Below the pieces are notes generated by a model. The model was given only the letters and a program-made list of their open reading frames with translations, did not search any database and was not told the DNA's origin. A DNA stretch of 64,000 nt from an uncultured Candidatus Saccharibacteria bacterium (GTDB taxonomy: Bacteria > Patescibacteriota > Minisyncoccia > UBA6257 > 2-01-FULL-56-20). Positions 32,739 to 56,204 of this stretch are shown one piece after another. Every line of letters begins with the position of its first letter. The first letter of the stretch is position 1. The DNA lies in NCBI GenBank assembly GCA_964361595.1, contig CAYIAX010000003.1, forward strand, positions 6,071 through 70,070, written 5' to 3'. The position numbers and the translations under genes are program-made.

Positions 32739-34013
32739 ATGGCTAAATCCGGTTTTTATAATTTAGGCATCGCTCCGAATATCTTGGAGATGCTCGAGCG
32801 GCTTAAATTTACTATTCCCACGCCGATCCAGGAGAAATGCATTCCGGCGGCGGTTGAGGGCAAAGATCTTGTCGGTGTTGCGCAGACCGGAACCGGCAAA
32901 ACACTCGCCTTCGCCGTGCCGATGATCCAGAGAGCGCTTGCCGGGAAGCAGGGCTTAGTTGTTGTGCCTACGCGCGAATTGGCCTTGCAGGTGGACAGCG
33001 TGTTTCGTGAAGTGGGGACAGCGCTTGGTATTCGGACAGCGGTCTTGATCGGCGGCGAGTCTATCGGCAGGCAATTCCAGGCTCTGCGCAGGCATCCGCA
33101 AATTTTGATCGTCACGCCCGGGCGGCTTGTTGATCACCTGGAACAGAAGACGGTTACGTTAAAACAGATTGCGACGCTGGTTTTAGATGAGGCAGACCGC
33201 ATGCTCGATATGGGATTTGCGCCCCAGCTCAAGCGAATTATCTCCGCTCTGCCGAAGGAACGGCAGACTCTGCTTTTTTCCGCGACGATGCCGGCGAATA
33301 TAGTCCGCATCGCGCAGGAATATTTGAAATTGCCGACGCGGGTTGAAATCGCGCCGTCGGGCACGACAGTCGAAAAGGTTACCCAGGAGCTTTTCTTCGT
33401 GGAGAAGCCTGATAAGCCGCGGCTCTTGGAAAAAATTTTAGGCGAATACCGGGGCTCGGTGCTCGTTTTCTCTCGCACCAAGCACGGCGCAAAAAGAATT
33501 GCGGCGAGCGTGCGCAATCTGGGCTATGCCGCGGCGGAACTGCACTCCAATCGCTCCCTGGGCCAGCGGAAAGAAGCGATGGACGGATTTAGGAACGGCA
33601 GATACCGCGTGCTCGTGGCCACCGATATCGCGGCGCGCGGCATTGATGTGCAGGGGATTGAGCTGGTTTTGAATTATGACCTGCCGCAAAGTTCGGAAGA
33701 TTACGTGCATCGCATCGGCCGCACGGCGCGCGCCGGCGGCGTCGGACACGCAATTTCTTTCGCCACGCCGGACGAGCGGAACGATGTGCGCGATATCGAA
33801 CGCCTGATCCGTTCCGTCCTGCCGCTTTCAAAGCTGCCTAATCTTCCGCCGGCGCGGACATTCGCGCCTGCCGGACGCGGGCAATTCACTCCGCAGTTTA
33901 ATAAGGCTCCCCGCCGTTTCGGCGGCGGCTCGCGCTCACAGCCGCGCTCCGGTTTTCCTCCCCGCCCAGCTTCGCATAAGCGCCGTTTCGGTGGCTCGCG
34001 GTGGAGAAGGTAG
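32739..34013 (+). CDS. DEAD-box ATP-dependent RNA helicase
   Basis: Q-motif, AQTGTGKT (I), PTRELA (Ia), DEAD (II), SAT (III), HRIGRTAR (VI), and a C-terminal Arg/Gly-rich tail. Confidence 0.9.
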   Translation: MAKSGFYNLGIAPNILEMLERLKFTIPTPIQEKCIPAAVEGKDLVGVAQTGTGKTLAFAVPMIQRALAGKQGLVVVPTRELALQVDSVFREVGTALGIRTAVLIGGESIGRQFQALRRHPQILIVTPGRLVDHLEQKTVTLKQIATLVLDEADRMLDMGFAPQLKRIISALPKERQTLLFSATMPANIVRIAQEYLKLPTRVEIAPSGTTVEKVTQELFFVEKPDKPRLLEKILGEYRGSVLVFSRTKHGAKRIAASVRNLGYAAAELHSNRSLGQRKEAMDGFRNGRYRVLVATDIAARGIDVQGIELVLNYDLPQSSEDYVHRIGRTARAGGVGHAISFATPDERNDVRDIERLIRSVLPLSKLPNLPPARTFAPAGRGQFTPQFNKAPRRFGGGSRSQPRSGFPPRPASHKRRFGGSRWRR

Positions 34014-34273
34014 GGTTTTTAGAGGAATGTTGTCCTGGGTCAACTCTGGAGCGCTGTGCTACAGCCAGATACCCCACGAAATTTGGTTGATACGGTATTC
34101 GTACGGGCTTGCAGTAGCAAGCGGATCGCCGTATTTTCAGTTGTCGGGAGCGCGTGTGCCGATACTTCAATCATTGAACAATTCCATAGAATTGTTCAAT
34201 CGAAATTGTCCACTTCCTTTACTTGCTTTACTTGCGAATTTGTTCCCACCTCCTTTTATTGTTGCTAAAAAAG

Positions 34274-34307
34274 CAACATTCTAACATTCTGCAGAATGTT
34301 AGAATGT
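34274..34307. repeat. perfect 34 bp palindrome AACATTCTAACATTCT-GC-AGAATGTTAGAATGTT (ACATTCT-heptamer palindrome family, copy 1)
   Basis: Read directly; the reverse complement is identical. Confidence 0.9.
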
Positions 34308-34318
34308 TGTAATCCAGA

Positions 34319-34354
34319 ATTTACGTACGGAATTACGTAATTCCGTACGTAAAT
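34319..34354. repeat. perfect 36 bp palindrome ATTTACGTACGGAATTACGTAATTCCGTACGTAAAT
   Basis: Read directly; reverse complement identical. Lies 12 bp from copy 1 of the ACATTCT palindrome. Confidence 0.9.
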
Positions 34355-34423
34355 GTTTAAATTTTGCCGATCGCGGCGAAAACGATTTTTTAAACTCGCA
34401 AGGCAGGTTTGGCCGCAAACAAA

Positions 34424-34753
34424 CTATTTGGACTTAGATTGTTTGTTAAGCACCACTTTCTGTACCGAGGGGCTTACTGGTTTATCTGTCCGGTGAATAC
34501 AACCAGCCCAACAACAAGGCCGGCGCTTTCCTGCTTTTAGCTCTGTGATCGTCCGCTCGATATGATTTTTTCTAGTCTCCGACTTCTTGGCGGAGACAAT
34601 CCAGCAGATCCATTCGTTGTGTGCTAGTGGCGTAATATCCTCCCACGCTCTCCGCGCCGCTGGAGCAGAAGCAAGGGCGTTTCGTAAATCCGGTGGCACG
34701 CTGTGCACCGTATCGACGGCAAATTCATTTTTTAACTTTGAAAACTTCGCCAT
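34424..34753 (-). CDS. YdeI/OmpD-associated (OmdA) family protein
   Basis: PPDLRNALASAPAARRAWEDITPLAHNEWICWIVSAKKSETRKNHIERTITELKAGKRRP matches the YdeI C-terminal domain pattern. Confidence 0.6.
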   Translation of the reverse strand: MAKFSKLKNEFAVDTVHSVPPDLRNALASAPAARRAWEDITPLAHNEWICWIVSAKKSETRKNHIERTITELKAGKRRPCCWAGCIHRTDKPVSPSVQKVVLNKQSKSK

Positions 34754-35981
34754 TTTCTCCCCACGTCACCTTCCCATCTCGGCTTATGACAACATCGATA
34801 TAATTTTTTTTCTCGGGATATTCCGTTCCTTTTTCTTTCAAATTTATTTTCACTCCCTTAATGTTAAACCTACCAGTTAAAGCTAAAAGTCTTTTTTGTA
34901 ATTCCTCTGTGCTTCTCCACCCTCCTACCAAAAACATTTCAATTTCATCCTTTGGAATTCCGGACAATTCCAAGCCGCTTTCAAGCCTGCTCAAAATATC
35001 CGTTTCATTTTGTGTTGCCTCCATATGTGCAAAACCGAGTATCATTGCCCCTTCTTTTGTTTTACCTTTTGCACAAATAACCACACACGGACCAACACCA
35101 GTAGTTCCTATTGGTCCTTTGTCTGCTGGAATAATCTGAATATCGCCTTGCTTAACAAAAACACCCGATTCAACAGATTCTGTGGCCTGATCTATTTCGT
35201 TGGTAGCTGAAAGTTGGACAATCTTTTCTTGATATTCCCTTTCCTTTTTACGTCGCGATTGAATTTTTGCTTCAACTCCAAGTGGAAGCTGTATATTCAA
35301 CCGAGGATGTTTCTCTAGCAAATCCCTTATTAAGGGCATGGCTTTTAAGTCGCCAAAGGCAAATAATATCTCTGTCGGCGGAATGTAGCTTAGAATGGCA
35401 ACCGACTTTTTATCTGTGTCAATATTTACACAGAAAGAGTAATCCTCTCCTTCTATAGTACGGCTAAAACTTACCCGCCAAAATCCCTCATATACTCTTT
35501 CAAGGCCGGTAGTTATAGCGGTATCAACCCCAAGGAATTCTTCCAAGTCTGCGTTCGCCTTAGCCATTGTATCCCTGAATCCTTGTTTTTGATAGCTACC
35601 CTTACCCAATTCATTGAAATGTACAATCTTGTCTAATTCTTGATATATAAAATCATTATCTTTTCCTTCTTTATATTCCCACGTCATGTCCATTGGCCTA
35701 TCTTCAACAATGTTTTTTAATAAAGTATTTCTTCTCATCACTTCTAAGGCATTAGGAAGACCGGGATAATCTTTTGCATAGGTTTCGGCTTGTTGCGGTG
35801 ACCAAAAGCCAACTTTTTGGACTTTTTGTAATAAATCTAGAGCTTCATAAATATAAGTTGAATATTCCCCCGATTTATTTCGATCCATACTCACCGCCGG
35901 ATTTTTTAGTGAGGCCGTAGAAAATAAAATGATTTGCCCTTCTCCTGATTCAGTTGGTGATTTTTCAAATGGTGATTCCAT
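34725..35981 (-). CDS. hypothetical protein (418 aa), AT-rich, possible Cys/His hydrolase
   Basis: Long ORF with lower GC than the flanks. GVGPCVVICAKG...AMILGFAHM suggests a Cys...His pair. No family assigned. Confidence 0.5.
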   Translation of the reverse strand: MESPFEKSPTESGEGQIILFSTASLKNPAVSMDRNKSGEYSTYIYEALDLLQKVQKVGFWSPQQAETYAKDYPGLPNALEVMRRNTLLKNIVEDRPMDMTWEYKEGKDNDFIYQELDKIVHFNELGKGSYQKQGFRDTMAKANADLEEFLGVDTAITTGLERVYEGFWRVSFSRTIEGEDYSFCVNIDTDKKSVAILSYIPPTEILFAFGDLKAMPLIRDLLEKHPRLNIQLPLGVEAKIQSRRKKEREYQEKIVQLSATNEIDQATESVESGVFVKQGDIQIIPADKGPIGTTGVGPCVVICAKGKTKEGAMILGFAHMEATQNETDILSRLESGLELSGIPKDEIEMFLVGGWRSTEELQKRLLALTGRFNIKGVKINLKEKGTEYPEKKNYIDVVISRDGKVTWGENGEVFKVKK

Positions 35982-36043
35982 AGGCTTATTTTAATAAATT
36001 TTCAGAAGTCGGGGTGGGCGAGTCAATGACTTCATTTCCCAAC

Positions 36044-36133
36044 TGGCGGTGGGTGGAGGATTCGAACCTCCGAGGGGATTTCTCCCCAACCGCATTTCGA
36101 GTGCGGCGCGTTAGACCACTCTGCCAACCCACC
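36044..36133 (-). tRNA. tRNA-Ser (anticodon CGA), CCA encoded
   Basis: Cloverleaf by eye: acceptor GGTGGGT/ACCCACC, anticodon stem CCGCA/TGCGG, loop CTCGAAA, long variable arm, T-arm GGAGG-TTCGAAT-CCTCC. Confidence 0.8.
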
Positions 36134-36209
36134 TTATCTCTTTATTCCGGCTACAGTATATAATGGAAAATGATAGGATTTCAATAAAGGTCGAGATTTT
36201 AACTCCAAT

Positions 36210-40190: not shown

Positions 40191-40316
40191 TCTTTCTATT
40201 ATCCTCAATGCGTGAACTATTACGAACCGCAGAAAAGCGAATGTGAAGGCGAGCGCGAAACTTCCGATCTTGATAGCGTGCTCGACCGGATTTTCCGGAG
40301 CGTACAACTGCGCTGA

Positions 40317-40352
40317 CAACATTCTCACATTCTCAAGAATGTGAGAATGTTG
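40317..40352. repeat. ACATTCT-heptamer palindrome family, copy 2 (CAACATTCTCACATTCT-CA-AGAATGTGAGAATGTTG)
   Basis: Read directly: arms are perfect complements around a 2 nt centre. Followed by the hairpin AAATGCGCCA-CCCGGC-TGGCGCATTT. Confidence 0.85.
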
Positions 40353-40413
40353 CGAATGCGCCACCCGGCTGGCGCATTTATAAATAGTGAAAACATGCTA
40401 TTGTTATTTCTAA

Positions 40414-47520: not shown

Positions 47521-47522
47521 AC

Positions 47523-47556
47523 GACATTCTCACATTCTGCAGAATGTGAGAATGTC
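47523..47556. repeat. ACATTCT-heptamer palindrome family, copy 3 (GACATTCTCACATTCT-GC-AGAATGTGAGAATGTC), perfect
   Basis: Read directly. Followed by the inverted repeat AAATGCGCCACCC...GGGTGGCGCATTT (47558-47607). Confidence 0.9.
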
Positions 47557-47674
47557 ATAAATGCGCCACCCGGGTGTCCCATTCGTAGCCTTGCGCGAAG
47601 TATGGGTGGCGCATTTAGTTGATGTTTGAACCCAGCAAGTGGGAGATTTACTTCGTGTTTTGCGAACCGCGCAA

Positions 47675-47714
47675 AACAACATTCTAACATTCTATAGAAT
47701 GTTAGAATGTTGTT
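47675..47714. repeat. ACATTCT-heptamer palindrome family, copy 4 (40 bp perfect palindrome AACAACATTCTAACATTCT-AT-AGAATGTTAGAATGTTGTT)
   Basis: Read directly. Preceded by the hairpin GTTTTGCG-AACC-GCGCAAAAC. Confidence 0.9.
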
Positions 47715-48281: not shown

Positions 48282-48662
48282 TTATTGCGTCGCCGGAAGT
48301 TCGCAGCCGGTTTTCTCGGCCAGGGTTTCAAGTGCGACTTCACCGCTCAAGCGGCTCCCGTCCTTAAATTCCCAGGTGGGATAGCCCTCGATACCTTTTT
48401 TTGTGCAGAAGGGAAGCTGGGCTTGGCCGTTCGGCGTGGAGCATTCCACATAATTCAATAACTTTTGCGAGCGGCCGAACATGGCTTTCTGGTTTTGGCA
48501 GTGCGGACACCAAAAGGCGCCATAGAAAATTGCGCCGCGATCCTTAAGACAAGTGGCAAAGGCGTCGAGCTTATCAGGCTTATTCGCCTCACTGCGCCAG
48601 ACGAAGAATAAAGCGACGACTGCGATAGTAACTACTCCGTAAATAGCCCACTTTTTAGACAT
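48282..48662 (-). CDS. thioredoxin-fold thiol:disulfide oxidoreductase (DsbA/BdbA-like), membrane-anchored
   Basis: N-terminal TM and a CxxC active site FWCPHCQ. Sits immediately upstream of the DsbB-like gene. Confidence 0.7.
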   Translation of the reverse strand: MSKKWAIYGVVTIAVVALFFVWRSEANKPDKLDAFATCLKDRGAIFYGAFWCPHCQNQKAMFGRSQKLLNYVECSTPNGQAQLPFCTKKGIEGYPTWEFKDGSRLSGEVALETLAEKTGCELPATQ

Positions 48663-48755
48663 AGGTAATATTATAGAACACTCTGGCTGAAATTAAAAAG
48701 GATTGGCGTGGATAGGGGACAAAACGTTTAAATAAGTGTCCAAAAGCTAAATCAA

Positions 48756-48799
48756 AGTTACTAAAATTATACTACAATTGTAGTATAATTTTAGTAACT
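48756..48799. repeat. perfect 44 bp palindrome AGTTACTAAAATTATACTACAATTGTAGTATAATTTTAGTAACT
   Basis: Read directly; reverse complement identical. Contains TATAAT on both strands and lies in the divergent intergenic region between the thioredoxin-like gene (-) and the 49051 gene (+). Confidence 0.9.
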
Positions 48800-48818
48800 C
48801 TTTTCCTGATTAGTCATG

Positions 48819-48856
48819 ACAACATTCCAACATTCTGCAGAATGTTGGAATGTTGT
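48819..48856. repeat. ACATTCT-heptamer palindrome family, copy 5 (38 bp perfect: ACAACATTCCAACATTCT-GC-AGAATGTTGGAATGTTGT)
   Basis: Read directly. Confidence 0.9.
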
Positions 48857-48882
48857 TTTGCGACAGGTGCAGGCGAGCGACG

Positions 48883-48914
48883 ACATTCTAATATTCTATA
48901 GAATGTGAGAATGT
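48883..48914. repeat. ACATTCT-heptamer palindrome family, copy 6 (imperfect: ACATTCTAATATTCT-AT-AGAATGTGAGAATGT)
   Basis: Read directly; two mismatches between the arms. Confidence 0.8.
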
Positions 48915-49050
48915 TGTTTATATGAAAAAGCCGCTTGTGGCGGAGCGCGCAGTTAAGATGGATTAGTCAATTAAAATGGAGTTGAAATTTTGGCCGAAAT
49001 GAGCAATAATGCAGGCGTAATGCGGGTAGCAATTATTTGTTTGAAAATTT

Positions 49051-49800
49051 GTGGAAAGTAAAGTTGTTCAACTTGAAGAATTAGAGCGCCTAAACAGGGG
49101 CTTGGACACCGTATTGGGCACCCGCCTAGAAGCAGGGGTATCTTATAGTGACTCAAAGCAGTTATTCACAATCTTTGTTATTGCGAAGGCCTCTAAAACA
49201 CATGAGGCGATTACCTTCCTTTGTAAAAATGGATTTGGGGAGGATGCTTTTATGCTTAGCAGAACGCTTTTCGAGCTATTGGTAATTTTTTTGTATATAT
49301 TAGCGGATAAGAAAGACGACAGACTAACTAGGTATATGGAATACGACCATGTAACTAGAAAAAAACTTTACGATCATATTGCTACTCGACCCGAACTGCT
49401 TAATGATAAAAGAGCTACGCCTGAAATTTTTCAACAAATACGCAGTGCTTGCGAAAGCGTTAAAGATAATTATGAAAAGCCCTTTACGTGGTCTGATAAA
49501 AGCATTGGAGAGATGTCCAAGGAGGTTGGCAGGTGGGAAACCTACAAAACCGTATATAAACTGCAGTGTATACTTTCGCACTCCGAATCTCGCAGCATGA
49601 ACGAGTATTTTAAAGAGGAAAACGGATCGCTCATTGTTGATATAGGTGCTAAAACCAATTTAATAGAGCAATCTTTAGCAATGAATTTTGACTTCTTTTT
49701 CTCCATCGTTGAGAAGGCCAACGAAGTGTTTTCTTTTGGATTGGAAGAACCGCTTAAAAAAGTGAGCGAAAGGTATGCAGATTTTATTAGTAAGAGATGA
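49051..49800 (+). CDS. hypothetical protein (249 aa), AT-rich accessory gene
   Basis: Clear ORF with lower GC than neighbours. Downstream of three palindromic elements, and ends 4 nt before the next gene. No motif recognised; a weak R-x5-H segment (RYMEYDH) is present. Confidence 0.5.
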   Translation: MESKVVQLEELERLNRGLDTVLGTRLEAGVSYSDSKQLFTIFVIAKASKTHEAITFLCKNGFGEDAFMLSRTLFELLVIFLYILADKKDDRLTRYMEYDHVTRKKLYDHIATRPELLNDKRATPEIFQQIRSACESVKDNYEKPFTWSDKSIGEMSKEVGRWETYKTVYKLQCILSHSESRSMNEYFKEENGSLIVDIGAKTNLIEQSLAMNFDFFFSIVEKANEVFSFGLEEPLKKVSERYADFISKR

Positions 49801-49804
49801 GAAT

Positions 49805-51307
49805 ATGAGCCAAACAACTGCCAATTCTATAACTTTCAGGTATAGCGAGGAAGACAAGCGGCTATTTAAAGATGATCAAAAACAACGCTGGAAAAGCATA
49901 GAACATTTTTATCAAAAACTTAGAGAACGTTGTCTTGAAGAAGTGGATATTCCAATTTCTGCTTCGCATAAAGCATGGATATCGGCAAGAGTTAATCTTC
50001 ATATAACAACTTCGCTAATGAGACTTTTGTATCTCACAGAATCCTTACGCGATGCGTCAATTAATTTTAACTCGGTGGCGGCCGCGATACATATAAAAGC
50101 GATGGTAGAAATACCCCTACATTTGGGATATTTGGTATGGATTCTGGATGGACACGGTGATTTTCAGAGCATAAGGCGAGAATTATCGAAAATTGCATTT
50201 GGTAATCGAGACAAGCAAACAGGTTTAACCGCTAGCAACAAAATATCGCAAAGAACCTTTTATACGCGTTCGGACGCGATGATCAAAAAGTTTTTTAAAG
50301 ACGAGCCGAGCAATATAAACATTTTTGAAACATTGTATAAAGAAGCTAATGCAACAGGCCACCATAACTACGAGGCACGCAACCTTCTTTGTGGAGTCCA
50401 AAATAACGATGTCTGGTGTGTAAAAGATAGAAAAGAATGGTTTGTGTTTATCAGTAATAACATTTTTCAATTTTTTATGCATTGCGAAGCGATACTGGGG
50501 ATGTCCCAAGTATTTCTAGAAACAATCGATCATTACGTTAGTCAACTTCCTGAAAACTTTTCTAAAGAAAGCAATATTGCAATTGGAAAGCAGAAGTTTT
50601 TGGAGATAAAGGGATTTTTCAAGCGGTTAAGCGATGAAATGTGTAATGTTGTTCAAGCTTATTACCTATGGAGCGCACTTGCTTTTGCACGATCAATACC
50701 CGAAGCGGGAAAAGAGCACGCGGAGGAAAACGTTATGATTATGAACAGGCACAAGCATTTCTTTATTCAAACAGAAGATAGTCATCTGCGAGCTTTTATA
50801 ATTGGCATCTCGAAGTTTTTTGATCGAGACCAAAGATCGTTAAGTATCAAACGACTAATAGAGAAAATCGAAGAAAGCAAGGATTTCATAACACCAGAAG
50901 TTGTGCTAGAAGTTTACCCCGATCGATTCAATGGAGATGAGGTGATTCATTACACTCCGTTAGAAGATGGAGATATTCAGTATATAGAAAGTCTGAGGGC
51001 CGACCACGAAGTCGTAATACAGAAACTGAAAGAAATTAGAGACAAGCGACTTGCCCATACAAGTATAGAAATTATTAAAGGCACCTTCGTTCCAAACGAA
51101 GTAGAAAAATTGATTATCGCCATACAAGAAATGTTTAATAAGCTGTCGAGCAGGTTTGATCAATCAACTACCCGTTGGGATCACTTAAAGGAAGGGGCCG
51201 TTATGGATACCGAATTGCTTCTAAGAAGTCTTAAAATGGGCGAGATGCAGAGGATTGCAAAAATAGAAAAAGAATACAAGCAAAAAACGAACGAGAGTTC
51301 TAGTTAA
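49805..51307 (+). CDS. hypothetical protein (about 500 aa), AT-rich accessory gene; alternative upstream start at 49775
   Basis: Long ORF tightly coupled to the 49051 gene. No recognised motif; a weak R-x5-H segment (RDKRLAH) is present. Confidence 0.5.
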   Translation: MSQTTANSITFRYSEEDKRLFKDDQKQRWKSIEHFYQKLRERCLEEVDIPISASHKAWISARVNLHITTSLMRLLYLTESLRDASINFNSVAAAIHIKAMVEIPLHLGYLVWILDGHGDFQSIRRELSKIAFGNRDKQTGLTASNKISQRTFYTRSDAMIKKFFKDEPSNINIFETLYKEANATGHHNYEARNLLCGVQNNDVWCVKDRKEWFVFISNNIFQFFMHCEAILGMSQVFLETIDHYVSQLPENFSKESNIAIGKQKFLEIKGFFKRLSDEMCNVVQAYYLWSALAFARSIPEAGKEHAEENVMIMNRHKHFFIQTEDSHLRAFIIGISKFFDRDQRSLSIKRLIEKIEESKDFITPEVVLEVYPDRFNGDEVIHYTPLEDGDIQYIESLRADHEVVIQKLKEIRDKRLAHTSIEIIKGTFVPNEVEKLIIAIQEMFNKLSSRFDQSTTRWDHLKEGAVMDTELLLRSLKMGEMQRIAKIEKEYKQKTNESSS

Positions 51308-51357
51308 GCGCATTCGGTTCTAATGTTTATTACTGCGGGACTTGGGAATCGACGTCG

Positions 51358-51600
51358 CTACTTCTTTAGTAAAGCTAACTTTTTCTCTCGACGCCAACCT
51401 TTGATTTTCGCTTCCCGTCTTCTTGCTTCAAGCAGGGTTTTAAAATTCTCCGAGTGAACGAGTATAACGGGTCGCCTAATTTTCGTGTAATGTGCGCCCC
51501 GCCTTGAATCATTGTGCTGTTTAAGCCTTCTTTCAAGATTATTGGTGCATCCAACGTAAAGAGATTGGTCGGCGCATTTTAAGATATAGACGAAGTGCAT
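51358..51600 (-). CDS. GIY-YIG nuclease domain protein (YhbQ/UPF0213-like)
   Basis: [28 protein letters not shown] carries the GIY-YIG core Tyr, Arg and Asn residues, in an 80 aa protein. Confidence 0.8.
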
Positions 51601-51712
51601 ACTACCTATAACGTTTCGCTTCCTTGCTCGAATCCTTACATTACTTTCCCTCGTTTCGCTCGGGATAATTGAAAATCTACTCCTCGAAACCTCGGAATGA
51701 TTTTCTAATTAG

Positions 51713-51783
51713 CTGGGGGACTAGGATTCGAACCTAGATTGCATGATTCAGAGTCATGATGCCTACCATTAGCAGATCCCCCA
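51713..51783 (-). tRNA. tRNA-Gln (anticodon CTG)
   Basis: Acceptor TGGGGGA/TCCCCCA with the U1:A72 pair and G73 discriminator typical of bacterial tRNA-Gln, anticodon stem CATGA/TCATG, loop CTCTGAA, T-arm CTAGG-TTCGAAT-CCTAG. Confidence 0.75.
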
Positions 51784-51790
51784 AAGTTGA

Positions 51791-52492
51791 TTATTTGTAC
51801 ATCCTAAATGTAATCATTTCCCGGAATTTTTCAACCTCTGCCCTTTTTCTTAATCGAATGTAGACTTTTCCAATTTCCGGATGAAACCCCAGATTTTTTA
51901 AACCGTGTTCAACTGCATTCAGTAAACTCTTGTTTTTGTTGCAAAACTGGAAGTTATAAGTGCAAGTCGGCAGGTGAATCGAAAGCGAACCTTCGGCCTC
52001 GAATAAACCTTTTAAAAAGCGGATAACATTTGCTCGATTTTCAGAGATCCATTTTGGCACCCGGTAATTAATAGCTTTTCTGTTCCCGGCCGGGATGCCC
52101 AATCTGGCAGAGATCTTCTTTTCATAAAGGCTGATTCGAATATTGTTTTTGTCTTTTACTTTGCTTACCGCGGGATTTTTACCAAATAATTTTTTGGTCA
52201 ATTTTGCATACCGCTCAACGAACCCGCTGTTATTCGAATTACAGGAGATGATAATTCTTTCGCATCGGGGGAAACTGCTGATGTTCCCATCGCCCAGAAC
52301 TACTCCCACATATTCGGCCAGGTCGCCACCGTGGGTAAAGTTTGGATAACTTGTCTTTATCAACCCAATTTTTTTCATCCCTTCCGTCCACCTGGAAAAG
52401 TTATTCAACCCGCGTGCTTTCATGGTGCGAGATATCTTGAGCGCGCGTGAGTCAGATTCTACATTCAAATCCACCTTTACATTATAGCTCAA
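51791..52492 (-). CDS. LAGLIDADG family homing endonuclease (two-motif, single-chain)
   Basis: Two LAGLIDADG motifs, LAEYVGVVLGDGNIS and IRFLKGLFEAEGSLSI, about 100 aa apart. Lower GC than the surroundings. Confidence 0.8.
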   Translation of the reverse strand: MSYNVKVDLNVESDSRALKISRTMKARGLNNFSRWTEGMKKIGLIKTSYPNFTHGGDLAEYVGVVLGDGNISSFPRCERIIISCNSNNSGFVERYAKLTKKLFGKNPAVSKVKDKNNIRISLYEKKISARLGIPAGNRKAINYRVPKWISENRANVIRFLKGLFEAEGSLSIHLPTCTYNFQFCNKNKSLLNAVEHGLKNLGFHPEIGKVYIRLRKRAEVEKFREMITFRMYK

Positions 52493-52587
52493 ATCTCAAA
52501 AATTTACTACCACTAGATTGAAATTAGATTTAAAGTAAAAATCTTGTATAATCATAGTAATCAAAGCTTTCACCAACGAAACAGCGC

Positions 52588-53247
52588 ATGTCAAAGTTAA
52601 TAGAAGATAATCTTATAGGAGCCATTCGCAGTGCTGGAGATGTACTTCTAAAGTGCACGATGATTGCTACCGCAGTAGAATTTTGCGGAAGTTTTTTAAC
52701 TAAGGAAACAAATAAAGGTACTACAGAAAGTAATTTTTTGGAATTTTGGAAAAGTAGATATATACCAAGTAAATATCATGAAATAGGTGAGCTTATGTAC
52801 GAAGTTTTCAGAAATGGGGTTTCGCACAGTTTTATTGCTAAGGGAGGGGTCATTCCAAGCGGCGAAGAGAAAAGCGCCAAAAAGCATTTAGAATTTTTTG
52901 AACAGGGAATTTTTATCTATGTGCCAGAGTTAGAAAAAGACGTTATAGCGGGAATCTCAAGGTTCTTAGAAGATTTAAAAAACAAAAGTGAGTTGCAGGA
53001 AAATTATCGTTTTGTACTTTCCGAACTAAATAGAGTTGGCAAAGAAAGATATGATGAATTTGTAAAAAAATACAAAATCCAAGTAAGCCAGGAAACAATT
53101 GCCGGAGATATTTTCCCAGATATTCAATTTGTTTTAGCTGGTGGGTCTTTGGATTTGATACCGCACCATACAGGCTCAACAATCTCAAAACACATTAAGG
53201 TTGAGATTAAGGTTAAACCAGCTAATGAAGAAAATTTTAAAGCCTAA
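52588..53247 (+). CDS. hypothetical protein (219 aa), AT-rich
   Basis: Clear ORF ending 4 nt before the helicase gene. No motif recognised. Confidence 0.5.
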   Translation: MSKLIEDNLIGAIRSAGDVLLKCTMIATAVEFCGSFLTKETNKGTTESNFLEFWKSRYIPSKYHEIGELMYEVFRNGVSHSFIAKGGVIPSGEEKSAKKHLEFFEQGIFIYVPELEKDVIAGISRFLEDLKNKSELQENYRFVLSELNRVGKERYDEFVKKYKIQVSQETIAGDIFPDIQFVLAGGSLDLIPHHTGSTISKHIKVEIKVKPANEENFKA

Positions 53248-53250
53248 ATT

Positions 53251-54732
53251 ATGGGGATTGTTTTTTGGATCATAATAGGAGCAGTTGGTTGGTCGTTTAT
53301 TTCTAAACGTATTCGTATAAACTCAAACCCAAATGAGGCGACGCCGAAGTATAATCAAGTCATGGGAAACCAAGTGATTGGAAAAAGACGCGAAAGCCGT
53401 CGATTTCTTGCCATAGAAAAGCCCAGGGTTGTATTTTCTGCAGAAAGCAAGAAGGTTCTTAACTTACTTGAAAACACAAGTACAAACGTTTTTATTACTG
53501 GGCGAGCAGGTACGGGCAAGTCGACATTACTGAAGTATTTTCGCGCAACAACAAAAAAGAATATTGCAATTCTTGCTCCAACCGGAGTTGCTGCGGTCAA
53601 TATCCAAGGGCAGACAATCCACTCTTTTTTCAAATTCGGGCCAGATGTTACCGAAGATAAAGTGAGAGCAGTTTATAAAAATCCAGAGGTTTATAAAAAA
53701 TTGGATACAATCATCATCGATGAAATCTCTATGGTTCGTGCTGATTTATTCGATTGCATCGAAAAGTCTCTGCGTGTAAATGGGCCAAGCCCACAAGTGC
53801 CATTTGGCGGAGTTCAAATTATAGTAATTGGAGACTTGTACCAACTTCCACCCGTAGTAACAAATGAAGAAAAGCAAATCTTTGAAACATATTATCATAG
53901 TCCTTATTTTTTCGATTCAAACTCTTATCAAAAAGTTAAGTTTAAGGTTTTAGAGCTTACTCATGTATATCGGCAGTCTGATAAAGATTTTATTGAAGTT
54001 CTTGATGCAATCCGCGTATGTTCGGTAACAGATGACCATCTTAATAAAATAAATCAACAGTTTAGTAGAAATAAGCACAACGAAAATGATTTTAAAATTA
54101 CACTTGTTCCTACTAATGCTATGGCTAATGCAATCAACGCCGTAAAATTAAGCCAGCTTCCCGGAGAGACAAAAAAATATGTTGGTACGATAACGGGGGG
54201 ATTTAATGAAAAAAATTTGCCCACTGCACAGGAACTCTTCCTCAAGGTGGGCTCACAAATTATGCTTCTTAATAACGATCCTCTTTCGCGTTGGATTAAT
54301 GGCGATCTGGCTAAAGTCTTAAAGTTAAATGATGGGAATATTAGAGTGCTTTTTGAAGATGGCACTTATGACGATATTGGGTTTTATAAATGGGATATGA
54401 TACGTTTTATTTACGATGAAGATGATAAAAAGATTAAATCCGAAGTTGTTGGTTCATTTACGCAGCTTCCAGTGCGACTAGCTTGGGCGGTTACTATTCA
54501 CAAAGGACAGGGTAAAACATTCGAAAAAGTTTTCATTGATTTTGGAAGTGGCACATTCGCTCCGGGTCAAGCATATGTTGCCTTAAGTAGGTGTAAATCT
54601 CTTAGCGGGTTATCTCTAAAGAGCCCACTTGAGCATAGGCATATTTTTATTGAACCCAGAATTGGAGAATTCTTAAATGAAGCTATAACGCCAAAAAAGA
54701 GGCGTGCTGAATCAAGCCCGCGACCGCAATGA
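53251..54732 (+). CDS. Pif1/RecD-like superfamily 1 DNA helicase (AAA_30 + UvrD_C_2-like)
   Basis: Walker A TGRAGTGKST, Walker B IIIDEISMV, and the C-terminal VTIHKGQGKTFEKV...AYVALSRCKSL typical of the Pif1/RecD2/TraA-helicase C-terminus. Confidence 0.75.
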   Translation: MGIVFWIIIGAVGWSFISKRIRINSNPNEATPKYNQVMGNQVIGKRRESRRFLAIEKPRVVFSAESKKVLNLLENTSTNVFITGRAGTGKSTLLKYFRATTKKNIAILAPTGVAAVNIQGQTIHSFFKFGPDVTEDKVRAVYKNPEVYKKLDTIIIDEISMVRADLFDCIEKSLRVNGPSPQVPFGGVQIIVIGDLYQLPPVVTNEEKQIFETYYHSPYFFDSNSYQKVKFKVLELTHVYRQSDKDFIEVLDAIRVCSVTDDHLNKINQQFSRNKHNENDFKITLVPTNAMANAINAVKLSQLPGETKKYVGTITGGFNEKNLPTAQELFLKVGSQIMLLNNDPLSRWINGDLAKVLKLNDGNIRVLFEDGTYDDIGFYKWDMIRFIYDEDDKKIKSEVVGSFTQLPVRLAWAVTIHKGQGKTFEKVFIDFGSGTFAPGQAYVALSRCKSLSGLSLKSPLEHRHIFIEPRIGEFLNEAITPKKRRAESSPRPQ

Positions 54733-54832
54733 TCAAATCCCTTATCTTCGACATCGGCGGCGTGATTACTTTGCATCCGAATAGCGCACTACAAATGCGC
54801 CCATCCGAATTAACTGTTTTAATAGCTTAGCG

Positions 54833-54877
54833 GAATCATACGGAAAATCGTACGATTTTCCGTATGATTCTTTTGTT
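54833..54877 (+). terminator. 38 bp perfect palindrome GAATCATACGGAAAATCGTACGATTTTCCGTATGATTC plus TTTTGTT: probable terminator
   Basis: Read directly; reverse complement identical. T-run follows on the plus strand, about 100 nt after the helicase stop. Confidence 0.45.
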
Positions 54878-54968
54878 ACTATAAACACGTGTCAAATCCG
54901 CCCTCGCCTGTTTGGGTGTGGATATAACGGCCTAAAAAGCTACGTGCGCTATGCTACACTATATATAA

Positions 54969-56204
54969 ATGCGCGAACCGAAGGCCGTTAAGGCCGACAT
55001 TGAAAAACAGCTTGCCAATCCGCCGCATAAGGTTTCAATCGTAAACCTGGTGGATCTTTTTGTTGAGTATTCCTACGTCTTGCGGGCCTCGGATATCCAT
55101 ATCGAGCCGGAGGCGGAGGATTTGCGCGTCCGTTTCCGCGTGGACGGCATGCTCACGGACATTTTCGATAAGAAAAACCTAGATAAGGATTTGCACCAGG
55201 AAATCATCACGCGGATCAAGGTCTTGTCCGGCTTGCGGACGGACGAGCACCTCCTACCGCAGGACGGCCGCTTCAAAGTGAAGCTCGAAGGCTTTGGCGA
55301 GGTGGACGTGCGCGTTTCCATCATGCCGACTTATCACGGCGAGAATGCCATTCTCCGGATTTTGGCCGAGACGCAGTCCTTCAAGCTTGAAGACCTGGGT
55401 TTCGACACGGGCGAGCTCGACAAGGTGAAACGGGCAATGCGCAAATCTTACGGCATGATTTTGGCGAACGGCCCCACGGGTTCGGGCAAGTCCACGACGC
55501 TCTACACGATCTTGAAGCAGTTGAACCAGCCAGACGTTTCGATCATCACGATCGAGGATCCGCTCGAGTATTCGATGGGAGGCACGACGCAGATTCAGGT
55601 GAATAACCAGGTGGGCCTCACTTTTGCGAATGGCTTGCGTTCGATTCTGCGGCAAGATCCCAACATTATCATGGTGGGCGAAATCCGCGACCAGGAAACG
55701 GCGGCAATCGCCGTGAATGCCGCTTTGACTGGTCACTTGGTTTTGTCCACACTTCACACGAACGATTCGGCTACGACTTTTCCGCGCCTCATTGATATGG
55801 GCGTGCCGCCTTTCCTTGTGGCTTCAACTATTAACGTAGCGATGGGCCAGCGGCTTGTGCGCATGGTTTGCCAGAAATGCAAAAAGGATCGTGTCTTGAA
55901 CCCGATGGAGGTAAAAAGCTTGAGCGAAATCATTCCGGATCTGAATCCCAAATTATCTCATTTTTACATGGGCGCGGGCTGCGCCGAGTGCAACGGCTCC
56001 GGCTATGCGGGCCGTATCGGCATCCGCGAAGTCTTGGAGGTGAACGAGGACGTGCGCCAGCTGATCATGGGCCGCGCGAACGCGAAACAGATCAAGGACG
56101 CGGCAATTAAGAACGGCATGACGACGATGGTGAAGGACGGCGTGCAGAAAGCGTTGAAGGGATTAACTTCGCTCGAAGAAGTTTTGCGCATTATCCATGA
56201 GTAA
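54969..56204 (+). CDS. pilB: type IV pilus assembly / type II secretion ATPase (PilB/GspE family)
   Basis: Walker A GPTGSGKSTT, Asp box, Walker B IIMVGEIRD, His box LSTLHTND, and tetracysteine CQKC...CAEC. Confidence 0.85.
   Translation: MREPKAVKADIEKQLANPPHKVSIVNLVDLFVEYSYVLRASDIHIEPEAEDLRVRFRVDGMLTDIFDKKNLDKDLHQEIITRIKVLSGLRTDEHLLPQDGRFKVKLEGFGEVDVRVSIMPTYHGENAILRILAETQSFKLEDLGFDTGELDKVKRAMRKSYGMILANGPTGSGKSTTLYTILKQLNQPDVSIITIEDPLEYSMGGTTQIQVNNQVGLTFANGLRSILRQDPNIIMVGEIRDQETAAIAVNAALTGHLVLSTLHTNDSATTFPRLIDMGVPPFLVASTINVAMGQRLVRMVCQKCKKDRVLNPMEVKSLSEIIPDLNPKLSHFYMGAGCAECNGSGYAGRIGIREVLEVNEDVRQLIMGRANAKQIKDAAIKNGMTTMVKDGVQKALKGLTSLEEVLRIIHE

Follow-up and report, generated by a model that had tools for sequence, protein, structure and literature searches.

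A compositionally foreign pair of genes in a Candidatus Saccharibacteria genome, encoding a DUF5677 protein and a DUF5677-like/AbiU2 HEPN fusion, as a candidate variant of abortive-infection or toxin modules

Can two tightly coupled, AT-rich genes in the genome of an uncultured Candidatus Saccharibacteria bacterium be placed among the known anti-phage systems? The pair lies at positions 49051-51307 of a 64-kb stretch of contig CAYIAX010000003.1 (assembly GCA_964361595.1, positions 6,071 to 70,070 of the forward strand), which is called the window here. Genomes of the Patescibacteria, or Candidate Phyla Radiation (CPR), are tiny, and to our knowledge little is known on the phage resistance of these bacteria. 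An earlier sequence-only reading had proposed the pair as a candidate novel defence or accessory system. Judged by its domain identities, it is most likely a cassette made of a DUF5677 protein and a DUF5677-like/AbiU2 HEPN fusion protein and would represent a variant among the phage abortive-infection or toxin modules; the idea of a categorically novel system was given up in favour of a candidate variant of these HEPN systems. The features of the locus are as follows.

49051-49800, + strand: open reading frame 1 (ORF1), GTG start, TGA stop at 49798-49800, 249 aa, DUF5677, all-helical
49805-51307, + strand: ORF2, ATG start, 500 aa, two domains (N-terminal domain and HEPN_AbiU2)
49805-50578, + strand: N-terminal domain (NTD) of ORF2, about 258 aa, a small Patescibacteria family, remotely DUF5677-like
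50609-51208, + strand: HEPN_AbiU2 domain of ORF2, Pfam PF18734
51038-51058, + strand: RDKRLAH, predicted HEPN Rx5H catalytic motif of ORF2 (R412, H418), from the translation (aa 412-418)
48950-54900, no strand: low-GC island of about 6 kb with the module and its neighbours, GC 0.385

The gene structure read from the sequence, two coupled ORFs of 249 aa and about 500 aa lying 4 nt apart, was confirmed. The TGA of ORF1 is separated by 4 nt from the ATG of ORF2 at 49805, and the product counted from this ATG has 500 aa. Alignment showed that the ATG at 49805 agrees with the N-termini of all homologues; public gene calls start ORF2 further upstream (ATG 49775, 510 aa).

The view that neither protein carried an assignable motif did not hold, as Pfam assigned DUF5677 to ORF1 and HEPN_AbiU2 to ORF2. 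Residues 269-468 of ORF2 matched HEPN_AbiU2 (PF18734) with an E value of 1.7e-17 and 64.0 bits (cut-off 26.8), covering profile positions 5-189 of 193, and precomputed annotation placed the PF18734 match on all full-length ORF2 homologues. Two weak R-x5-H segments had been noticed earlier, one in each protein, and they fared differently. RDKRLAH in ORF2 is identified by its pattern as a genuine HEPN Rx4-6H motif: in the form R-[DN]-x3-[AV]-H, the R and the H were invariant in six other full-length fusions and in a stand-alone AbiU2 protein (locus L018), and the residue after the R was D or N in the relatives, polar as the HEPN Rx4-6H definition of Anantharaman et al. 2013 (PMC3710099) requires. 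RYMEYDH in ORF1 (aa 94-100) was rejected as a HEPN motif because, although R94 is invariant, most of the 34 aligned members have W in place of H100, which is thus not conserved.

ORF1 was identified from its profile match as a clear member of DUF5677 (PF18928), with an E value of 3.4e-29 and 102.5 bits (cut-off 27.1) over profile positions 7-164 of 166. The alignment of 34 sequences showed four invariant residues, R71, E75, Y169, and H177, and the AlphaFold2 (AF2) model had a predicted local distance difference test score (pLDDT) of 88. Pfam showed neither an MNT nucleotidyltransferase nor a DNA-binding antitoxin domain in ORF1. DUF5677 genes also occurred with other partners. One overlapped a Schlafen AlbA_2 gene (L046, 2135-4116), one was followed by a string of genes for a 569-aa protein, a 223-aa protein, and DUF4238 (L047, 5001-9230), and one locus held a tandem of 495-aa and 263-aa DUF5677 proteins (L008, 4400-6792). 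A further relative stood beside genes of no assigned family, near PrimPol and a serine recombinase (L010); DUF5677 has been reported to be enriched next to serine recombinases in Bacillota (PMC12632615).

The NTD of ORF2 had no match in Pfam. A profile search of 1.84 billion (1.84e9) proteins returned 40 representatives, and those relatives with named records all came from Patescibacteria/CPR metagenome-assembled genomes. Besides the AbiU2 fusions, the NTD was also found as a stand-alone protein of 250-320 aa. Its conserved residues were R73, N89, K98, E102, Y178, and H186, with K98, E102, Y178, and H186 the most conserved. Several comparisons pointed to a relationship with DUF5677. Among the distant NTD relatives, 2 of 24 matched PF18928 weakly (E about 1e-3), and the NTD hidden Markov model matched DUF5677 proteins with per-sequence p values of 1e-7 to 1e-5. 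The two profiles were collinear over 190 columns in hhalign (E 0.0027), and this alignment placed K98, E102, Y178, and H186 of the NTD on the invariant R71, E75, Y169, and H177 of DUF5677. The AF2 models of ORF1 and the NTD showed the same order of elements, namely a helix ending in His, a beta-hairpin, and a long helix. An initial hhalign comparison with shallow alignments was negative, and the link was seen only with the distant NTD relatives added. The NTD is therefore regarded as probably, not provenly, homologous to DUF5677.

A GC content below that of the flanking genes, judged earlier by eye, was borne out by computation. ORF1 had a GC content of 0.391 and a third-position GC (GC3) of 0.396, and ORF2 had 0.380 and 0.363. 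The GC content was 38.5% for the island and 50.2% for the remainder of the window (0.385 vs 0.502), and GC3 was 0.28-0.47 in the island genes and 0.60-0.72 in the flanking housekeeping genes. Among stretches of equal length, 2.6% were as AT-rich as ORF1 plus ORF2, and these lay mostly within the same island. The ORF1-ORF2 pair is compositionally foreign. In three of four loci, fusion genes elsewhere also had a GC content about 7 points lower than their flanks. A groundwater metagenome contig from Hainich H43 was identical in the ORF1-ORF2 region, with the same genes present.

The treatment of the two genes as one travelling unit stood in part. The nearest relatives, with 84% and 86% amino acid identity, form the same two-gene block in another genome (L006/L007/L020). 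This block has the same 4-nt junction, with ATG where ORF1 has GTG, and its nucleotide identity of 83.3% runs without gaps over 1505 nt and stops exactly at the NTD/HEPN boundary (nt 50574), the NTD gene of that genome being without the HEPN domain. It lies within a restriction-modification cluster, flanked by a methyltransferase and an AlwI-type restriction enzyme on one side and by an EcoEI_R_C gene on the other. A third, divergent instance had the reversed order, NTD and then DUF5677, with a 5-nt gap (L014/L045). The two genes need not be paired: NTD-AbiU2 fusions were also found on their own, in four contexts (L004, L005/L016, L032/L033, and L029); in the last, the fusion had only a methyltransferase downstream, 150 nt away. 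One of these solo fusions, on another CPR contig, had a gene for a UvrD-type helicase with an intein and a PemK toxin gene within a few kb (L004, 10432-13485).

The gene neighbourhoods of the NTD family were surveyed at 35 loci, representing about 22 distinct contexts. Stand-alone NTD genes lay between hsdS and hsdR with 4-nt overlaps (L026/27; L026 2790-7926), next to hsdS (L022, 783-2689), and, in type III systems, between mod and res (L021, 7-5207; L025, 1864-7272). At three loci, GmrSD, a 224-aa protein, and the NTD followed each other in that order (L011/23/24). At three others (L013, L034, and L037) the NTD was followed by a DUF4238 protein that matched the PADLOC model DUF4238-Pers with an E value of 4e-12; a single DUF4238 protein has been shown experimentally to defend against T7 (PMC9122126). 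The stand-alone AbiU2 gene of L018 overlapped an NTD gene by 4 nt. A DUF5677 neighbour was present in 3 of the about 22 contexts. Several small partners without an assigned family also occurred. The family-wide gene neighbourhood is strongly of the defence type, with restriction-modification operons, GmrSD, DUF4238, and Schlafen. The HEPN domain of the AbiU2 family has been reported as tied to restriction-modification operons, and HEPN genes within such operons are a known theme, of which PrrC is the paradigm (PMC3710099). No relatives of ORF1, ORF2, or the NTD were found in PLSDB plasmids and GenBank phages (tblastn) or in IMG/VR viral contigs (scans).

With moderate confidence, we regard ORF1-ORF2 as a horizontally acquired conflict cassette in which a HEPN RNase effector would be regulated through DUF5677-type domains. 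ORF2 would be the effector, its AbiU2 HEPN domain (R412/H418) being a predicted metal-independent endoribonuclease. On activation, by an infecting phage or an insult of another kind, it would cleave RNA of the cell or of the phage, and growth or infection would be halted. The NTD may hold the RNase inactive and receive the activating signal, much as PrrC keeps its HEPN nuclease under the control of its N-terminal domain. ORF1, encoded on the same message as ORF2 given the 4-nt junction, would act as an accessory partner: paired with the related NTD, it would modulate or extend sensing, or tune latency. A precedent for protection comes from an integron cassette of Vibrio mimicus that carries an AbiU2 domain and was reported to be protective against T4 and T7 (bioRxiv 10.64898/2026.03.17.712381). 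The anti-phage or abortive-infection context suggested earlier for the locus thus keeps its support from the foreign composition, the HEPN motif, and the defence-type neighbourhoods of the relatives, and loses that from the ACATTCT palindromes, which are treated below.

Several results weigh against this reading. AbiU2 of Lactococcus lactis alone was not toxic in E. coli (PMC3985639), and a DUF5677 ORF tested on its own in E. faecalis did not figure among the five ORFs for which protection against six phages was reported (PMC12632615). In PADLOC-DB v2, neither ORF1 nor ORF2 matched any family at E <= 1; the same library does return Abi models (AbiO) for a neighbouring gene. Since fusions exist without a DUF5677 neighbour, ORF1 and ORF2 are not proven to be functionally coupled. 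The probability that hhalign gives for the NTD-DUF5677 link is low (11%), and in this window the module lacks flanking restriction-modification genes. NCBIfam and PHROGs gave no informative match to ORF1 or ORF2, the sole hit being a PHROG of unknown function on ORF1. The assignment of either gene to a known defence model was rejected, as the PADLOC, NCBIfam, and PHROGs scans gave no usable result.

The same solo fusions are the starting point of another explanation, which we consider unlikely, in which two independent single-gene conflict genes simply stand side by side, ORF2 as a self-contained effector and ORF1 as an unrelated DUF5677 protein with its own activity. NTD-AbiU2 fusions stand alone at L004, L005/L016, and L032/33, DUF5677 is paired elsewhere with Schlafen AlbA_2, with the 569-aa protein and DUF4238, or with a second DUF5677, and only 3 of the about 22 NTD contexts have a DUF5677 neighbour, all of which speaks for this explanation. 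However, the block with its 4-nt junction recurs, 83% identical in nucleotides, in another genome and another context, the third divergent instance again places the two genes 5 nt apart in the reversed order, and the apparent homology of ORF1 and the NTD suggests homotypic pairing.

A toxin-antitoxin addiction module would read the same architecture differently: a bicistronic operon with the small gene upstream and the HEPN toxin downstream, in which ORF1 is a protein antitoxin and the pair stabilises the island and does not serve phage defence. HEPN domains are common as toxins of such modules (PMC3710099), and the island is compositionally foreign. However, as fusions with an intact Rx5H lack a nearby DUF5677 gene, it is unlikely that ORF1 is needed as an antitoxin. 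ORF1 also showed neither of the domains looked for in Pfam, an MNT nucleotidyltransferase and a DNA-binding antitoxin domain, and the place of NTD relatives within restriction-modification operons is a defence context and not that of a classic toxin-antitoxin system. We consider this explanation clearly improbable.

A housekeeping or other non-conflict role, such as that of a native RNA-processing or RNA-binding factor whose AT-richness is only gene-specific, is very improbable: some HEPN domains do serve cellular RNA maturation or bind RNA non-catalytically (PMC3710099), and structure searches gave no specific toxin match, but the NTD family is very small and patchily distributed (40 representatives among 1.84 billion proteins), the same cassette occurs in unrelated genomic contexts with no lineage-wide conserved syntenic position seen, GC3 is 0.36-0.40 against 0.60-0.72 in the neighbouring housekeeping genes, the catalytic R and H are intact, and the neighbours of the relatives are restriction-modification and defence genes.

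A wider proposal, which we put forward only tentatively and hold to be doubtful, is that DUF5677 and the NTD form one superfamily sharing a [KR]-x3-E ... Y-x7-H site, and that this superfamily is an unrecognised class of defence component in Patescibacteria restriction-modification operons. It might act as a sensor or guard (or as an enzyme itself) to which effectors are coupled interchangeably: DUF4238, Schlafen, restriction systems of type I, III, or IV, or an AbiU2 HEPN RNase, either fused to it or encoded next to it. The operon in the window would then be a heteromeric pair gating a HEPN RNase, PrrC-like, once the first line of defence is disabled.

The module does not stand alone in the island. 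The following features lie downstream of it.

51358-51600, - strand: GIY-YIG protein, 80 aa, bare catalytic domain (Pfam, E 5e-18)
51712-51783, - strand: tRNA-Gln (CTG), from the tRNA search
51791-52492, - strand: free-standing LAGLIDADG-type protein, 233 aa (Pfam LAGLIDADG_3, E 2.2e-7)
52588-53247, + strand: ORF5, 219 aa, uncharacterised family with an invariant RNGVSH
53251-54732, + strand: PIF1/Dda-like superfamily 1B (SF1B) helicase (Pfam PIF1, E 1.4e-32; phrog_325, E 1.4e-90)

The GIY-YIG gene, the tRNA-Gln, the LAGLIDADG gene, and the helicase that had been described as neighbours are thus all present. The module had also been described as bracketed by homing nucleases. Nucleases occur on its downstream side only, and therefore it is followed and not bracketed by them; the GIY-YIG protein is a bare catalytic domain of 80 aa, and its designation as a homing nuclease was not supported. 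The LAGLIDADG ORF ends 8 nt from the tRNA-Gln(CTG), and the GIY-YIG gene comes next after the tRNA, likewise on the minus strand; all three are placed centrally in the island. Integration linked to this tRNA was rejected, as no copy of the tRNA-Gln 3' end was present among the repeats of at least 14 nt in 48500-55100. Pfam showed no integrase domain in the six island ORFs scanned, and Rfam showed no family besides tRNA. A tandem array as in type III antitoxins was likewise absent.

ORF5 had no match in Pfam, PADLOC, or NCBIfam. In its family of 8 members, R75-N-G-V-S-H80 was invariant (RNxxxH, a HEPN-type motif); ORF5 may be a second HEPN-type conflict gene of the same island. A relation to AbiU2 was rejected, as profile comparison showed none. 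ORF5 ends 3 nt before the PIF1/Dda-like helicase gene, whose product has a hydrophobic N-terminus (MGIVFWIIIGAVGWSFI), and ORF5 homologues adjoin serine recombinase, relaxase, and TrwB-like genes (L049) or a Schlafen AlbA_2 gene (L050). At about 34000-36200 the window has another patch of low GC (0.38-0.44), beside tRNA-Ser (36044-36133) and tRNA-Arg; it, too, may be acquired.

Palindromes were the remaining element of the locus as it was first described. All three upstream palindromes lie in the divergent intergenic region (48663-49050), as had been stated, one of the two ACATTCT palindromes being imperfect; a further palindrome lies at the right edge of the island.

48756-48799, no strand: 44-bp palindrome, perfect, unique in the window, TATAAT on both strands (repeat search)
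48819-48856, no strand: 38-bp ACATTCT palindrome, perfect, copy of a dispersed host repeat (repeat search)
48880-48917, no strand: ACATTCT palindrome, imperfect copy, 86% complementary (repeat search)
54833-54870, no strand: 38-bp palindrome, perfect, unique, then TTTTGTT, in the gap that separates the helicase gene from pilB, at the island's right edge

The operator role assigned to the ACATTCT palindromes was not upheld. The family comprises 38-bp perfect or near-perfect palindromes with the consensus ACAACATTCTAACATTCTnnAGAATGTTAGAATGTTGT, and it is a dispersed host repeat, since 6 copies were present in the 64-kb window and half-site matches numbered 12 against 0.09 expected. The copies (34273-34310, 40316-40353, 47521-47558, 47676-47713, 48819-48856, and 48880-48917) are all intergenic; some directly follow the stop codon of an unrelated gene, others precede genes, and for these reasons the palindromes were rejected as operators of the module. 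Two copies have the 3' flank aatgcgccacccgg in common. No ACATTCT palindrome was found at the loci of the relatives in other genomes. The family may be a repetitive extragenic palindromic (REP)-like or miniature inverted-repeat transposable element (MITE)-like element, or may represent sites of a global regulator. Promoter-like matches in the region were not commoner than in shuffles. The palindrome at 54833-54870 is terminator-like, resembling an intrinsic terminator in its layout.

The locus ties an orphan Pfam family, DUF5677, and an NTD of 258 aa so far known only from CPR metagenome-assembled genomes to an established antiviral RNase class and to restriction-modification operons. The sites R412/H418 of the HEPN domain and the shared K/R-E-Y-H residues are testable, and they could bear on the control of HEPN effectors and on the existence of a PrrC-like guard of restriction systems in CPR. 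If the pair is merely another HEPN toxin cassette, the gain is that DUF5677 and the NTD can be annotated as conflict-system components. The by-product of greatest interest is the putative NTD/DUF5677 superfamily with its place within CPR restriction-modification operons.

Comparison with known systems showed likenesses to five of them. Like other DUF5677 (PF18928) proteins, ORF1 belongs to a family associated with mobile elements and defence islands; it differs from them in being coupled to a HEPN fusion whose NTD seems to be a distant paralogue. ORF2 resembles the HEPN_AbiU2 family (PF18734) in its profile match, in the Rx4-6H motif with a polar residue, and in the link of NTD/AbiU2 relatives to restriction-modification. 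However, its HEPN domain is fused to a 258-aa NTD that is absent from Pfam and PADLOC, its partner is a DUF5677 protein, and its host is a CPR bacterium.

The AbiU system of L. lactis (abiU1 and abiU2; Dai et al. 2001, cited in PMC3985639) is likewise a two-gene locus with an AbiU2-type HEPN protein and an association with abortive infection. The present locus encodes no AbiU1-like protein (PADLOC, none at E <= 1); its partner gene encodes DUF5677, and its AbiU2 domain is fused. In L. lactis, resistance is conferred by AbiU1 and may be down-modulated by AbiU2. HEPN-MNT pairs share with ORF1-ORF2 the small bicistronic operon with a HEPN RNase. However, no nucleotidyltransferase domain was found in ORF1 or the neighbours, the partner is dispensable in relatives, and ORF2 combines a HEPN domain from the AbiU2 family with a second domain.

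PrrC of EcoprrI, a HEPN anticodon nuclease encoded in a type Ic restriction-modification operon, differs from ORF2 in that the NTD is no ABC ATPase (no P-loop was found, nor any Pfam match to such a domain in ORF2), and tRNA targeting by ORF2 is hypothetical. ORF2 is also not part of a restriction-modification operon in the window, whereas its stand-alone NTD relatives are (L026, L021, and L025). The likeness to PrrC lies in a predicted HEPN RNase carrying an N-terminal domain of putative regulatory function, and in the position of the stand-alone NTD genes, which are placed between hsdS and hsdR, stops and starts overlapping, just where prrC is found in EcoprrI.

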